Source: Acidimicrobiia bacterium
GTDB taxonomy: Bacteria > Actinomycetota > Acidimicrobiia > Spongiisociales > UBA5794
DNA: 64,000 nt
Assembly (NCBI GenBank): GCA_026985095.1
Contig: JALSQW010000008.1
Coordinates: forward strand, 50,470 to 114,469
Direction of reading: 5' to 3'
The notes under the pieces are model-generated. The model saw only the letters and a list, made by a program, of their open reading frames with translations, did not search any database and had not been told where the DNA came from. Positions 11,726-46,184 of the stretch are shown here, one piece after another (positions within the stretch are counted from its first letter, which is position 1; each line of letters begins with the position of its first letter). Position numbers and translations under genes: made by a program.

Positions 11726-12207
11726 GGGAGCGCCGTCGGATGCCGGGCCGACCACACGGCGAGCGCCAGCAGCGCGGCGACGCCGAAGACGACGGCGAGC
11801 GCCAGCCAGCGGAGCGCGGCGACGTCGTCGGCCGGGGCGGGTTCCGGCGGCGTCGGCGATCGGGCCAGGTCGAACACGACCGGATCGACCCCGAGATCGG
11901 TCAACCGGGCGCCGTCGGAGATGATCGATCCACCTTCGGGGAGGAGGGCCTCGAAGGCGATCGTGAGGTCTTCGGGTTCGGAGAGCTCCACGATCCCCGC
12001 CCATCGACCCGGCTCGATCTCCGACAGCGCCACCGGATCGAGTTCGCCGCCGAGACCGACGCCGCGCACGACCACGGCGTTCGCCGAACGGGAGAGGCCG
12101 ACCGAGATCTCGATCGTGAGCGGATCGAGCCCGACCGCCCGCGCCTCGGCGGCACCGAAGGGTGCGGCGAGCTGCACGATCGCGAGGAGGAGGGAGAGCC
12201 ACGCCAT
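11722..12207 (-). CDS. hypothetical exported protein with C-terminal membrane anchor
   Basis: N-terminal signal-like segment, C-terminal TM; overlaps MFS start. Confidence 0.6.
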
Positions 12208-12284
12208 GGGGATCGTCCATCCTACGACCGATCTCGACAGCAGAGGCTCCGCTCTATGCTTGCCGACTCCGAGATGGACGCACG

Positions 12285-13694
12285 ATGAACCAGCCCAGGA
12301 CGCTCTTCGACAAGGTGTGGGACGACCACGTCGTCCATCGCGCCGACGACGAGCCGGACCTGCTGTTCGTCGACCTGCACCTCGTCCACGAGGTCACGTC
12401 ACCGCAGGCCTTCGAGTCGCTCGCCCTGACGGGCCGGTCGGTGCGGCGCCCGGATCTGACGCTGGCGACGATCGACCACGGGGTGCCGACCGTCGGTCGC
12501 GAGCTCGGCATCCGAGATCCGCTGTCGCGGCGCCAGATCGAGACCCTGGTCGCCAACTGCCGCCGCCACGGCATCACGCTGTTCGGTCTCGACGATCCCC
12601 GCCAGGGCATCGTCCACGTCATCGGTCCCGAGCAGGGGGTCACCCAGCCGGGGATGACGATCGTCTGCGGCGACTCCCACACCGCCACCCACGGTGCCTT
12701 CGGTGCTTTGGCTTTCGGGATCGGCACGTCGGAGGTGGAGCATGTCCTCGCCACCCAGACGTTGCCTCAGGAACGTCCACGGTCGATGGCGATCGAGGTC
12801 GACGGCGCGCTTCCGGTGGGGGTGTCGGCGAAGGACGTCATCCTGGCGATCATCGCCGAGATCGGTACCGCCGGTGCCACCGGCCACGTCATCGAGTACC
12901 GGGGCTCGGCCATCGAGGCGCTGTCGATGGAGGGGCGCATGACGATCTGCAACATGTCGATCGAGGCCGGCGCCCGGGCCGGGATGGTCGCACCCGACGA
13001 GACGACGTTCGCGTACCTGAAGGGTCGCCCGTTCGCCCCGACCGGCGCCGACTGGGACGAGGCGGTGGCGTCCTGGCGGATGCTGCACACCGATGAGGGC
13101 GCGTCGTTCGACACGCGGTTGTCGATCGACGCCTCGACACTGGAGCCGCACGTGTCGTGGGGAACGAACCCCGGCCAGACGCTGCCGGTGACGGGCACGG
13201 TACCGGACCCGGCGACGATCGACGACCCCGCCGAGCGTGCGCAGGTGGAGCGGGCGCTCGAGTACATGGCGTTGCAGCCGAACACGCCGATCACCGACAT
13301 CCGCATCGACCGGGTGTTCCTGGGGTCGTGCACCAACGCCCGGATCGAGGACCTGCGGGAAGCCGCGCATCTGTTGGAGGGTCGGAGCGTCCACCCCGAC
13401 GTCCAGGCGATGGTGGTTCCCGGCTCGGGTCTGGTGAAGCTCCAGGCCGAGGAGGAGGGCTTGCACGAGGTGTTCCTGGCCGCCGGATTCGAGTGGCGCG
13501 ACGCGGGGTGTTCGATGTGCCTGGGGATGAACCCGGACATCCTGATGCCCGGGGAGCGTTCGGCGTCGACGTCGAACCGGAACTTCGAGGGCCGGCAGGG
13601 CCGCGGTGGGCGGACCCATCTGGTGTCCCCGGCGATGGCGGTGGCCGCCGCGGTGGAGGGCCGGTTCGTGGACGTGCGGGAGTGGGGGCGATGA
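12285..13694 (+). CDS. leuC: 3-isopropylmalate dehydratase large subunit
   Basis: [41 protein letters not shown]. Confidence 0.97.
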
Positions 13695-14296
13695 AGGCGG
13701 TCTCGCGGATCGAGGGCACGATGGCGCCGCTCCCTCGCGCCAACGTCGACACCGACCAGATCATCCCCAAGCAGTTCCTCAAACGGGTGGAACGGAGCGG
13801 ATTCGGGCCGTACCTCTTCTACGACTGGGCGCGCGACGCCGAAGGAGAGCTCGATCCGGCGTTCGTGCTCAACCGCCCCGAGTACGCCGATGCGACGGTG
13901 TTGGTGACGGGACCGAACTTCGGCTCGGGCTCGTCCCGGGAGCATGCTCCCTGGGCGCTGGAGGACCGCGGGTTCGAAGCGATCATCGCCCCGTCGTTCG
14001 CCGACATCTTCTACAACAACTGCATCAACATCGGCCTGCTGCCGGTGGTCCTCCCCGCCGGCGACGTGGACGCGCTGACGGCGGCGGCGGAGCGTTCCGG
14101 CACACGGGTGGTGATCGATCTGGCGGACCAGACCGTCGTCGTCGACGGCCGGACGTTCCGGTTCGAGATCGACGCGTTCGCCAAGCACCGCCTGCTGCAC
14201 GGTCTCGACGCCATCGACCTGACCCTCCGCCACGTCGACGCCATCGACCGGTACGAGTCGTCGCGCCCTCGCTGGCGCCCGTCCCTGACCCCCTGA
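13691..14296 (+). CDS. leuD: 3-isopropylmalate dehydratase small subunit
   Basis: [28 protein letters not shown]. Confidence 0.97.
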
Positions 14297-14328
14297 CACC
14301 CTCCGCTCCGAACCGTGGGCCGGCCACC

Positions 14329-14439
14329 CCCCTCGAGGGGGTTCCCGAACCCAGGGTTGGCGACACCCCTCGAGGGGGTTCCCGAACCCAGGGTTGGCGA
14401 CACCCCTCTGGGGGTGTGGCGAACCCTGGGTTGGCGGCG
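14329..14439. repeat. 37-bp tandem repeat (2 exact + 1 degenerate unit) with internal palindromes, REP-like
   Basis: Unit CCCCTCGAGGGGGTTCCCGAACCCAGGGTTGGCGACA at 14329 and 14366, degenerate copy at 14403; no spacers. Confidence 0.85.
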
Positions 14440-14461
14440 AGGGGCTGGGTACGCTGGGAGG

Positions 14462-15217
14462 ATGGACATCGTCGACGGGTACCTGGCGCGGATCGGGGTG
14501 ACGGCATGCCCGAAGATCGACCGGAACGGGTTGGCGACGCTCCAGGCCGCACACCTCATCGCCGTGCCCTTCGAGAACCTCGACGTGCACGCCGGACGCG
14601 ACGTGTCCTGCGACGCGGAACGAGCCGTCGCCAAGGTCGTCGAACGTCGGCGCGGCGGATGGTGCTTCGAGCTCAATGGCGCCTTCGCCGTCCTCCTCGA
14701 ACACCTCGGTTTCACGGTACGGCGCCTGGCGGCGACGGTGCTGCTGGGGGAGCCGACTCCGATCCCCGACCACCTCACCCTGGTCGTCACCGTGGATCGC
14801 CCCTACCTCGTCGACGTCGGGTTCGGCAGCGGCACCCCCCGACGGCCACTCCCCCTCGACGACCCCGGTCCCCACCATGGCGGATCTGGTCTCTACCGCT
14901 TCACGACCGACGGCGGCCAGAGGGTCCTCGAGCGCCGCCGCCGCCGGGACGGGACCTGGGAACGATGCTTCCGCTTCGACGACGCGCCGGTCACGCTCGC
15001 CGACCTCGAGCCGTCGGCCCGCCACCTGGCCACCACCGACAACCGGTTCACCGCCTCCCCCTTCGCCACCCGAGCCCTCGACGACGCGGCGGGACGAGTC
15101 ACCTGGAACGACGGGCGGCTCCTCATCCGGCGGACCGGCAGCGAGCTCGTCACGCCGACGCCCGACGATCGAGCCACGCTCGAACGCTGGTTCGGGATCG
15201 TCGTGGGCGACGGCTGA
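14462..15217 (+). CDS. nat: arylamine N-acetyltransferase
   Basis: YLARIG, VPFENL, RRGGWCFELN (Cys), DHL (His), VDVGFG (Asp). Confidence 0.92.
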   Translation: MDIVDGYLARIGVTACPKIDRNGLATLQAAHLIAVPFENLDVHAGRDVSCDAERAVAKVVERRRGGWCFELNGAFAVLLEHLGFTVRRLAATVLLGEPTPIPDHLTLVVTVDRPYLVDVGFGSGTPRRPLPLDDPGPHHGGSGLYRFTTDGGQRVLERRRRRDGTWERCFRFDDAPVTLADLEPSARHLATTDNRFTASPFATRALDDAAGRVTWNDGRLLIRRTGSELVTPTPDDRATLERWFGIVVGDG

Positions 15218-15220
15218 CCG

Positions 15221-15424
15221 TCAATCACCGTCGGCTCGGGAGCCCGGACCGGGCTCGTCGGGACCCACTCAACACCCGGGCTCGCCGTGGTTGCCGCAGC
15301 AGTTCGACCGGTTCTTCAGCTTGATGGCGTTGTTCCTCGCCGCCACCAGGATCTTCTCCATCAGCGGCAGCTCGGACCGGGCCCAGTTGGAGCGGACCGC
15401 CTCGAAGCTCGGCTCACCGCACAT
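15221..15424 (-). CDS. small Cys-rich protein ending CCGNHGEPGC; possible Sec readthrough at TGA 15269-15271 (ends at 15269 if not recoded)
   Basis: ATG 15424 with TACGGT -10 element 6 nt upstream; GGTC-loop hairpin 12 nt after TGA; next in-frame stop at 15221. Confidence 0.6.
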
Positions 15425-15449
15425 GGGGCCACCGTACCATGAGGTCGCC

Positions 15450-15815
15450 ATGACGCTGCCCACCCGCCACGAGCAGGCCCAGGCCATCCTCCGCCGACGA
15501 GCCCGGAAGATGGCCAAGGAGATCCTCGGTCGTCAACCGGTCGGCGCCGCCGACTTCGCCTCCGCGTTCACCCTCGAGCGCATCGACCTGATCGCCGAGA
15601 TCCCCGACGTCGACGCCCTCCGGCGCCTCGGCCGGACCGTCGTCGGTCCGGCCAACGATCTGTACATCCTCCACGACCCCGACGGCAGCTTCCGCGTCTA
15701 CGTGCAAGAACGCGGCGAGCCCCGCAACGTCGCCGCCGGCCTCGACTTCGAAGCCGCCAGGGACGCCGTCATCGACCGGCTCATCCTCCTCAACGGCATC
15801 CCCCTGGACCTGTAG
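15450..15815 (+). CDS. hypothetical protein (121 aa)
   Basis: GC3-rich ORF MTLPTRHEQAQ...NGIPLDL, divergent from the small Cys-rich gene. Confidence 0.7.
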   Translation: MTLPTRHEQAQAILRRRARKMAKEILGRQPVGAADFASAFTLERIDLIAEIPDVDALRRLGRTVVGPANDLYILHDPDGSFRVYVQERGEPRNVAAGLDFEAARDAVIDRLILLNGIPLDL

Positions 15816-44926: not shown

Positions 44927-45487
44927 ATGCCCCATATCGAGCCGATCCCCCCGGACGAGGCCACCGGCGTCGCCGCCCGCCAGTACGAGGCCGCCATGCG
45001 GCGGGCCGGCCGGATCTGGAACATCGTGGCCATCCAGAGCCAGAACGGTCCGGCCATGCGCGACTCGCTGCGCCTGTACTCGACGTTGATGCTCGGCGAA
45101 TCGCCGCTGTCGAGGGCGCAACGGGAGATGATCGCCGTGGTCACCTCCCAGGTGAACGAGTGCGTGTACTGAACTCGTGCCCATCTCCACGACCTCCGGT
45201 CGGAGGTCGACGACCCCGAGCTGGTGGACCGCTTCGCCCACGACTGGCGTGAGGCGGGGCTCGATCCGGCCACCGAGGCGCTGCTGGGCTTCGCCGAGGC
45301 CCTGACGCGGGACCCGACCGGTGACGCCGCCGGACGCGTCGCCCGGCTCCGCCGAGCCGGCTTCAGCGACCGGGCCATCCACGACGCCACCCAGATCTGC
45401 GCCTACTTCAACTACATCAACCGGATCGCCGAAGGCCTGGGCGTCGAGCCGGAGGACTGGATCGACGAGGTCGGGCGCCGCCGCTGA
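44927..45487 (+). CDS. AhpD/carboxymuconolactone decarboxylase-like peroxidase-related protein; selenoprotein (CxxU, TGA 45170-45172)
   Basis: LSRAQREMIAVVTSQVNECVY-TGA-TRAH continues in frame to YFNYINRIAEGLGV; SECIS-like hairpin 45190-45209; TATATT -10 element 6 nt before ATG. Confidence 0.85.
45190..45209 (+). promoter_or_regulatory. bacterial SECIS element
   Basis: CGACCTCC-GGTC-GGAGGTCG 8-bp stem starting 17 nt after UGA; GGUC as in the E. coli fdhF SECIS loop. Confidence 0.75.
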
Positions 45488-46184
45488 CGGGTCGCGGGTC
45501 CGCAGGCAGACCGGCGAGGAAGCCCCCGAAGAACCGGTCGGCGGTCTCGGCGACATCGTCGTCGGCCACCCGCAGCGCCGCGTCGAGCTGAGCCCGGTCG
45601 GCTCCCGCCCGAGCCACGAGATCGTCGAAGGACGCCGACCGCCAGGTGGCGAAGATCGCCGGGGTGACCTCGGGATGAGGCTGGATCGCCAGGGCCGAGC
45701 CGACCCGGAACGCCTGGAGGTAGCCGCCGCCCGTGGCCAGGATCGTCGCGTGCGGTGGCGCGTCGAACGTATCGGCGTGCACGCGGAGCAGGGAACGGCC
45801 ATGGAGCGTCCCGACGGCGGGGTCCACACGTCCGTGCGGAGTGAGCTCCACGGGGGCGAAGACGGCCTCGGGACGTGGCGCCGGGTAGGCCGCACCGCCG
45901 AGGGCCGAGGCGATGATCTGGCTTCCCAGGCAGATGCCGAGGACCGGCACGCCGGCGTCGACGGCGTCGACGACGAGCCGCCCTTCGGCGACGAGGAAGG
46001 GGTACTCGTCGGTCTCGTATGCGCCCATGGTGCCGCCGAGGAGCACCAACGCCGAGACCTCGCCGATGTCGGGCATCGCCTCGCGGCCGGCGGCGACGAT
46101 CCGCGCCGGGATCCCACGCCGGTCGAGGACGTCGGCCAGTCGGCCGGCCGGCGCCACGGGGTCGTTCTGCACGATCGTGATCAT
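45417..46184 (-). CDS. type 1 glutamine amidotransferase-like protein
   Basis: LLGGTMGAY, LGICLGSQ, QPHPE. Confidence 0.88.
   Translation of the reverse strand: MITIVQNDPVAPAGRLADVLDRRGIPARIVAAGREAMPDIGEVSALVLLGGTMGAYETDEYPFLVAEGRLVVDAVDAGVPVLGICLGSQIIASALGGAAYPAPRPEAVFAPVELTPHGRVDPAVGTLHGRSLLRVHADTFDAPPHATILATGGGYLQAFRVGSALAIQPHPEVTPAIFATWRSASFDDLVARAGADRAQLDAALRVADDDVAETADRFFGGFLAGLPADPRPVSGGARPRRSSPPARRPGLRRSG

Follow-up and report, generated by a model that had tools for sequence, protein, structure and literature searches.

A 64,000-nucleotide (nt) stretch of contig JALSQW010000008.1 from an Acidimicrobiia bacterium, referred to here as the window, carries a minus-strand gene that very probably encodes a 67-residue selenoprotein. 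Its first 51 codons end in CCGNHGEPGC and are followed by an in-frame UGA, which can be read with high confidence as selenocysteine (Sec, U), and the frame then continues for 15 codons to a second stop. An earlier reading made from the letters of this sequence alone had suggested a small selenoprotein with a Cys-Sec (CU) motif and of no known family. That suggestion is supported by comparison with homologous loci in other genomes and metagenomes, which are meant wherever loci are counted below: the TGA is kept, the hairpin behind it covaries, the Sec machinery is present, and no Pfam or NCBIfam model matches. The kind of gene is familiar but the family is new: it is widespread, encodes a tiny protein, uses Sec nearly exclusively, and is represented by database records that, in nearly every case examined, are cut at the UGA. 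For the complete interpretation, in which the protein also binds soft metals, our estimate of the probability is about 0.45.

The individual elements described in the sequence-only reading were all recovered. These are the 51-amino-acid (aa) open reading frame (ORF) ending CCGNHGEPGC-TGA, a minus-strand hairpin 12 nt past that TGA, a readthrough extension, VGPDEPGPGSRADGD, that stops 3 nt from the convergent N-acetyltransferase ORF, and a second GGTC-bearing hairpin near position 45190; coordinates are collected in Table 1.

To follow the codon at the proposed Sec site, 61 related genomes were searched in six frames with the 51-aa ORF. It was found in 14 of them, including the window's own genome and two unpublished ones (G039, G050), and TGA followed the ...GC codons in all 14. 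A profile of the 12 published members (A1) was used for searches at class and phylum level. In 401 sampled genomes of the class it returned 27 strong matches (E ≤ 2.6e-18), each with an in-frame TGA; five weaker matches (E ≥ 2.4e-4), four of them in four other genomes, were treated as noise. At phylum level the family was present in 72 of 401 sampled Actinomycetota genomes, 5 of the 72 being unpublished, with an in-frame TGA in every one. A pattern scan of 185,579 species genomes yielded 141 relatives, of which 80 were kept. They derive mostly from metagenome-assembled genomes (MAGs) of Acidimicrobiia or Actinomycetota, and the remainder bear the labels Dehalococcoidia, Anaerolineae, Nitriliruptorales, Nitrospirota, Syntrophaceae and Acidobacteria; Chloroflexota-labelled loci carry the family as well.

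Across 109 distinct published loci, the codon after ...GC was TGA in 108 and TGC in one. The next in-frame stop at the same loci was TGA in 78, TAG in 26 and TAA in 5. In metagenomes, a scan returned over 599 matches to the pattern, with 505 relatives, and in the 80 that were kept the Sec-site codon was TGA in 77, TGC in two and TGT in one; some metagenome contigs duplicate genome contigs, and the two locus sets are not fully independent. The sequence-only reading had anticipated that homologues would keep TGA nearly always, with Cys in some, and had named TAA or TAG in equal numbers as the outcome that would speak against it. The first pattern is what the counts display, and neither TAA nor TAG was seen at the Sec site.

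Judged from these homologues, the region behind the UGA is translated. The open frame there has a median length of 18 codons (range 1 to 83, 109 loci), and the tail contains at least three His at 84 of the 109 loci and none at 19. His makes up 425 of 3266 residues in the coding frame; the two alternative frames would have 64 His in 3265 residues and 51 in 3265. Homologues with Cys at the Sec position are uninterrupted ORFs through the tail region and have the same architecture.

The hairpin behind the UGA has the properties of a selenocysteine insertion sequence (SECIS) element. At nearly every locus, a GC-rich stem of 6 to 8 bp starts 12 to 21 nt past the UGA and closes a loop of GGUC(C), GGUU(C) or CGUGA. 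Covariation was counted over a 7-pair helix in an alignment of 93 published sequences (A2) and compared with 500 shuffles. Pairing was found in 81.7% of helix cells against 67.1% in shuffles, and double-change cells numbered 96 against 34.4 ± 5.6, a value that none of the 500 shuffles reached; every slid register of the helix scored lower. Pair 26-40, for example, occurs as A-U (28), C-G (25), G-C (19), G-U (7) and U-A (2), and pair 28-38 as C-G (49), U-A (26) and U-G (9). The stem is part of the coding frame, and the residues that it encodes change with it (EPGPGS, SSGPDD, ESGPDS); the constraint therefore acts on the RNA.

The consensus model of Zhang & Gladyshev for the bacterial SECIS (bSECIS), as summarised in a 2026 review (PMC13188914, section 5 and Fig. 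2 legend), specifies a loop of 3 to 9 nt with a G within its initial two nucleotides, a stem of 4 to 16 bp, a distance of 16 to 37 nt from the UGA and a minimum free energy of ≤ −7.5 kcal/mol. Applied as a strict filter that does not allow bulges, it was passed by 85 of 109 loci, compared with 89 of the 1085 control TGA trinucleotides taken from these loci. The window element passes with a 7-bp stem, a GUC loop, a UGA-to-loop spacing of 19 nt and −11.5 kcal/mol; these stem and loop dimensions hold if the closing G-C pair of the hairpin forms. The proposal that the hairpin is conserved in homologues is thus sustained, compensatory changes included. The fallback offered with it, that the hairpin terminates transcription between the convergent genes, is not. 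What follows the hairpin is CCGAGCCGACGG and not a T-run, and a scan of positions 15100 to 15600 returned no terminator-like sites. A rho-independent terminator, moreover, needs neither the fixed distance from TGA nor the conserved G(G)U loop that the element displays. At several loci the tails are very short, at 1 to 9 residues (L111, L119, L120, L122, L129 (Chloroflexota-labelled), L128, L133 and L135); there the second stop falls inside or just before the SECIS loop, so that the hairpin is mostly 3' untranslated.

Forms with Cys in place of Sec are rare. At the DNA level they account for 4 of 189 loci when the two locus sets are pooled with their overlap kept, and the three from metagenomes (L215, L219, L221) have complete N-termini and end ...GEPGC-C-E-stop. 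A profile search of 1.84 billion cluster representatives gave 437 clusters (50% identity) at E ≤ 1e-3, and most of the 150 clusters listed end at profile position 50, that is, they are cut at the UGA. Seventeen of these 150 were retrieved: 16 with a match extending past position 50, and P0031, whose ten matched stretches belong to an unrelated 890-aa repeat protein. Eight representatives (P0025, P0026, P0036, P0038, P0042, P0052, P0088, P0091) run uninterrupted through the Sec position, where they have Cys, and their tails, e.g., ...GCC-IATEDCSIDFENGEHSH, are unlike the hairpin-encoded EPGPGS. Five records have W at this site and one has G (P0041, P0044, P0048, P0077, P0127, P0105); rather than real variants, these are presumed to be TGA read by the gene caller under another genetic code. 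A collection of 5.8 billion proteins gave 24 matches, all unnamed or annotated as "hypothetical protein" and 23 of them 49 to 53 aa long, and a protein-atlas search with the 51-aa ORF returned only unnamed clusters of 49 to 53 aa. The scarcity of Cys forms may explain why searches for Cys/Sec pairs missed the family.

The host possesses the machinery needed for Sec insertion. Its genome (2.93 Mb, 70 contigs) contains SelB (294 bits), SelA (402 bits), SelD (396 bits) and tRNA-Sec (selC, 73.6 bits), all above curated cut-offs. Co-occurrence of the family with this machinery had been put forward as a check, and it was observed: of the 401 genomes sampled from the class, 273 have a SelA match above the cut-off, among them, by comparison of the two lists, 27 of the 27 that are family positive. 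Related genomes are not independent samples of this association. The window also includes a second selenoprotein gene, of known type, which encodes an AhpD/CMD-like protein with a CxxU motif; its hairpin starts 18 nt after the TGA and has the same GGUC loop as that of the small gene. The selD match (G000:C32:14580-15503, locus L010) holds one in-frame TGA, and SelD is itself probably a selenoprotein in this organism.

The start of the gene is likewise defined by comparison. In all 14 loci first found, the start lies 46 to 51 codons ahead of the Sec codon. Of 103 loci with an assignable start, 57 have a TANNNT box 5 to 8 nt upstream of it, as against 13 of 2180 positions drawn at random from these loci, and a Shine-Dalgarno-like word stands in place of the box, or beside it, in 30 of 103. 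Ahead of the window gene there is a −10-like box and no Shine-Dalgarno sequence; the mRNA is probably leaderless, and the earlier description of the ORF as such is plausible. A longer N-terminus beginning at an upstream ATG or TTG was rejected on the basis of the conserved start distance, and the upstream "WYG" conservation corresponds to the −10 box. GC content at third codon positions of the 51-codon ORF is 0.88, compared with 0.61 and 0.54 at positions 1 and 2, and codons 1 to 51 differ from those of a same-genus genome by 9 synonymous changes and 1 nonsynonymous change. Purifying selection acts on the ORF, which looks like a real gene; it is present in a single copy in its genome.

In an alignment of 124 sequences (A4), residues N31, C42, C43, G44, G50, C51 and U52 are invariant, and M1, N13, G47, E48 and P49 are nearly so. 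AlphaFold2 predicts two helices (residues 7 to 16 and 21 to 38), with the Cys/Sec loop and the tail lacking regular structure; mean pLDDT was 69 with 12 sequences and 74 with 124. The family profile matched no PDB sequence, and the pLDDT-74 model, a helical hairpin plus coil, gave no Foldseek match in the PDB at E ≤ 0.001. Searches of Pfam-A (2025) and NCBIfam (June 2026) with the 51-aa ORF, the longer alternative start, the recoded 67-aa protein and the 12 members produced no match, with 0 of the 12 members reaching even E ≤ 1 in NCBIfam. An Rfam search found no match, and the 67-residue protein has no signal peptide.

The family was also compared with catalogued selenoproteins. A catalogue of 119 prokaryotic selenoprotein families is given in the 2026 review (PMC13188914, Table 1), and none of those among them that are modelled in NCBIfam or Pfam matched. 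The CU-motif entries in that table are Csac_0668, SaoL, HgcA, SaoC, MbdU and KCU-star (PMC13188914). The NCBIfam models of the last five gave no match, and Csac_0668 (CDD cd10141) falls outside the libraries searched. The "hypothetical proteins DG, DW and DF" of the deep-Sep study come from Desulfobacterota. Neither CCGNHG nor GEPGCU occurs in the three files of the deep-Sep supplement or in the roughly 4 million characters, possibly a partial text, of the BSepDB supplement; the full 10-residue motif string is absent from the deep-Sep supplement, the one of the two in which it was looked up. The motif strings are absent from the full-text literature searched, and no paper on the family was found, with the supplements of the review and Haft & Tolstoy 2025 outside the comparison and a listing there possible. 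An abundant 78-aa family of Actinomarina was considered and dropped after 0 matches in 65 genomes of about 1 Mb (group f16), whose assignment to Actinomarina is itself a guess.

In the mechanism that we propose, ribosomes on a probably leaderless mRNA would insert Sec at UGA-52, with the hairpin 12 nt downstream acting as the bSECIS for SelB carrying Sec-tRNA(Sec), and 15 more codons would then be translated. The product would consist of a helical hairpin bearing a flexible loop, C42-C43-G-N-H-G-E-P-G-C51-U52, with a His-rich tail behind it in most relatives. The Cys-Cys and Cys-Sec pairs may form a thiolate/selenolate site for a soft metal, namely Cu(I), Hg(II), Zn, Ni or Cd. Uptake or transfer of the metal would fall to the His tail, and the protein would act as a small metal buffer or metallochaperone. 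Metal binding is preferred because two vicinal chalcogen pairs stand eight residues apart (CC-x6-CU) and are followed by a His-rich tail. All four potential ligands (C42, C43, C51, U52) are invariant in the 124 sequences, and His-rich tails are typical of Ni, Zn and Cu chaperones. The CU motif, rare in selenoproteins, has been grouped with heavy-metal systems and called "highly suggestive" of interaction with heavy metals (Haft & Gwadz, bioRxiv 10.1101/2022.07.06.499078).

Several observations weigh against this proposal or parts of it. Related genomes are not independent, and the counts given above therefore overstate significance. Taken alone, the window hairpin is unremarkable: the folding energy of its 42-nt stretch is −18.2 kcal/mol (z = −0.79), a value matched by 39 of 200 shuffles, and GGTCC occurs at 292 sites in the window, so that the case rests on comparison with other sequences. 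Twenty-four of the 109 loci fail the strict, bulge-free SECIS filter, most of them with a visible stem that contains a mismatch or with A-U pairs that leave it just short of the energy limit. The tail of the window gene belongs to the 19 that lack His, as is the case for its genus, and its last four residues differ from those of a same-genus relative. The sole TGC locus of the genome set, L131, is without helix 1 and a start codon and looks degenerate. Neighbouring genes were analysed by ORF clustering over 81 loci and by Pfam searches on 11, 42 and 42 neighbouring ORFs, the two 42-ORF sets covering 40 loci. No neighbour was conserved across lineages, only lineage-local synteny (UppS, AP endonuclease, GNAT, HlyIII and the like) being found, which suggests that the protein works alone or with a partner encoded elsewhere. 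Genes for metal transport are sporadic neighbours, at 4 of 40 loci (a CopA-type P-ATPase directly upstream at L216, a CDF efflux protein at L241, and an ArsP_1 permease at L112 and L123), and redox genes are about as frequent.

The main rival to metal binding is a redox role, to which we assign a real but clearly smaller chance. Cys51 and Sec52 would cycle between the selenol/thiol pair and an eight-membered selenenylsulfide ring, with C42-C43 as resolving residues, and the protein would serve as a reductant of peroxides or disulfides or as an electron shuttle. A Gly-Cys-Sec-Gly tail forms the redox centre of animal thioredoxin reductase, and G50-C51-U52 is invariant here and sits in a loop that is flexible in the AlphaFold2 model; yet a thioredoxin fold is missing from the protein, as are CxxU and UxxC motifs. 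Redox neighbours are sporadic (an AhpC/TSA ORF upstream at L101 and L102, a thioredoxin-reductase-like gene at L216 and MsrA at L219), and no reductase partner is conserved among the neighbours examined. Most selenoproteins are redox proteins (PMC13188914, section 7), but a shuttle has no obvious need of the His-rich tails present at 84 of 109 loci.

A narrower alternative, which overlaps both the metal and the redox readings as a special case, makes the protein a partner of isopropylmalate isomerase, LeuCD, whose exposed [4Fe-4S] cluster it would shield or repair, either through capture of Cu(I) or through reduction of the cluster once damaged. Copper targets Fe-S dehydratases, and the small gene directly follows leuD on the same strand at eight loci (L127, L171, L180, L181, L188, L199, L201, L233) from mutually divergent subfamilies, in the order leuC-leuD-X-leuB where the flank is long enough. 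leuCD also lies nearby in the window and at five further Acidimicrobiia loci. At most loci, however, no leu gene is within reach (23 of 222 loci have a leu match, duplicates counted), in the window the N-acetyltransferase gene stands between leuD and the small gene, which is convergent, and inherited synteny could account for part of the pattern. We regard this alternative as quite unlikely.

Less likely still is a carrier or store of selenium, in which Sec or a perselenide on the Cys/Sec cluster would be delivered to SelD, or a sensor of Sec supply. The ratio of Sec to Cys (108:1 and 77:3) would suit such a function, as would a selA gene (L117:3-716, minus strand; PF03841, E 6.7e-65) divergent from the small gene in the Nitriliruptorales MAG L117, and the in vivo selenium donor for SelD is described as unresolved (PMC13188914, section 7). 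Linkage to a sel gene was nevertheless seen at this 1 of the 40 loci examined for neighbours, Cys forms exist, and one Sec per 67 residues makes a poor store.

That the protein is not a selenoprotein at all, its TGA being an ordinary stop and its hairpin a terminator or a chance GC-rich stem, appears highly improbable. The window hairpin is no better than shuffles, 23 of 24 database matches are proteins that gene callers have terminated at residue 51, and TGA is the commonest stop at these loci (78 of 109 second stops). At that second-stop frequency of 0.72, however, TGA at 108 of 108 loci has a probability of about 4e-16, uncorrected for relatedness, and an ordinary stop would not account for Cys codons in its place at 4 loci, for the in-frame His-rich tail, or for a covarying stem of constant spacing and conserved G(G)U loop, with no T-run and no terminator-like site. 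Equally improbable is the modified peptide that the sequence-only reading had allowed for, i.e., a ribosomally made precursor with a Cys/Sec-rich core behind a helical leader: small size, a helical N-terminus before a Cys-rich stretch and the lack of a known family would fit, but the gene is single copy in its genome, and no modifying enzyme, protease or exporter is conserved beside it in the lineages examined.

Compared with bacterial selenoprotein genes in general, of which the AhpD-like CxxU gene of the window is an example, the small gene shares the UGA, the spacing of 16 to 37 nt, a small G(G/U) loop on a GC-rich stem, homology that continues past the UGA, the existence of Cys homologues and the presence of selA, selB, selC and selD. 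It differs in belonging to an undescribed family, in having only 51 codons before the UGA, in being probably leaderless and in the rarity of its Cys forms. The CU selenoproteins linked to heavy metals, SaoC (NF040734), SaoL (NF040728), SaoB, HgcA (NF040863), MerT-type and MbdU (NF045648), have in common with it the vicinal Cys-Sec pair, database records truncated at CU and a metal-ligand function that is only proposed; sequence similarity is absent in the comparison of the 12 members with the NCBIfam models. SaoC is a secreted protein or lipoprotein of about 158 residues with a CU-COOH end, encoded in the SAO gene cluster (Haft & Gwadz, bioRxiv 10.1101/2022.07.06.499078), whereas the present protein has no signal peptide, no SAO gene neighbourhood at the examined loci, a second pair (CC) and a tail after U. 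MbdU, a metal-binding double selenoprotein, has two Sec, as described in the table of the review (PMC13188914), while the window gene has a single UGA before its true stop and no hidden Markov model (HMM) match. KCU-star/DUF466 (NF033934; E. coli YbdD and YjiX, which end RCC, and Campylobacter KCU) is likewise small and cytoplasmic, at about 65 residues, and has CC or CU at its C terminus; here, in contrast, there is no HMM match, U is followed by 1 to 83 residues, and linkage to a CstA-type transporter is absent. Two animal proteins invite comparison by motif only: thioredoxin reductase, with G-C-U on a flexible tail, and selenoprotein P, a His-rich, Sec/Cys-rich protein with His-rich stretches and Cys/Sec clusters. 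The present protein has no flavoprotein domain and no homology to either.

On a more speculative level, which we hold to be rather unlikely, the protein could be a near-obligate Sec metallochaperone or buffer of aerobic Actinomycetota and Chloroflexota, comparable to selenoprotein P, that shields Fe-S dehydratases such as LeuCD from Cu(I) and other soft metals. If so, it would be a main reason for the retention of the Sec machinery in these lineages. Sec is favoured over Cys almost to exclusion, which suggests that selenium performs a task here of which sulfur is incapable. The family is common (72 of 401 Actinomycetota genomes; 437 clusters) yet unmatched in the modelled part of the 119-family catalogue, an indication that present selenoprotein searches overlook ORFs that are very short and have few Cys homologues. 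Its recognition would correct many genome and MAG annotations and raise selenoproteome counts for Acidimicrobiia and their relatives, and the design of CC-x6-CU plus a His tail, small and synthesisable, offers a good system for selenolate-metal chemistry.

Table 1. Positions of the small selenoprotein gene, its parts and other features within the window
Feature	Position	Strand	Basis or remark
Small selenoprotein gene (very probable), 67 residues, predicted cytoplasmic	15221..15424	minus	sequence and comparison
−10-like hexamer TACGGT	15431..15436	minus	ends 6 nt before ATG; fits a leaderless transcript
ATG start codon	15424-15422	minus	sequence
N-terminal 51 codons, MCGEPSF...NCCGNHGEPGC	15272..15424	minus	predicted helices 7-16 and 21-38, then CCGNHGEPGC loop
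UGA, very probably Sec52, straight after Cys51 (vicinal Cys-Sec pair)	15269..15271	minus	homologue codon counts
Predicted bacterial SECIS hairpin, GAGCCC-GGUCC-GGGCUC	15240..15256	minus	in coding frame (codons for EPGPGS)
Hairpin parts GAGCCC, GGTCC, GGGCTC	15256-15251, 15250-15246, 15245-15240	minus	begins 12 nt after TGA
15 post-Sec codons, VGPDEPGPGSRADGD	15224..15268	minus	translation
True stop TGA	15221..15223	minus	3 nt from end of convergent N-acetyltransferase ORF (15217)
Convergent arylamine N-acetyltransferase ORF	14315-15217		PF00797, E 4.3e-46
Divergent 121-aa ORF	15450-15815	plus	no family match
leuC, leuD	12162-14296		
AhpD/CMD-like CxxU selenoprotein gene, ...NECVY-TGA-TRAH	ORF ~44,950-45,520; TGA 45170-45172	plus	known type
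Hairpin of AhpD-like gene, GACCTCC-GGTC-GGAGGTC	45191-45208		

Some of the sporadic neighbours may themselves be selenoprotein genes cut at TGA, as their Pfam matches are partial. The AhpC/TSA ORFs (L101:3254-3964 and L102:2006-2665) match profile positions 47 to 123 of 124, and the ArsP_1 ORFs (L112:782-1264 and L123:2127-2918) match positions 15 to 135 of 294; if so, the former would be Prx-type and the latter Cu/Zn-efflux permease-type genes.

Around the small gene itself, the divergent 121-aa ORF is conserved in close relatives only. Its ATG lies 25 nt from that of the selenoprotein gene, and the promoters of the two must therefore overlap. Between leuD and the N-acetyltransferase gene, at approximately 14300 to 14460, near-identical peptides recur on both strands in six-frame translation (GVANPGFGNPLEG, PNPGLATPLEGVPEPRVGDTP), which points to an intergenic element that is short and either repeated or palindromic; the start of the N-acetyltransferase probably lies downstream of it.

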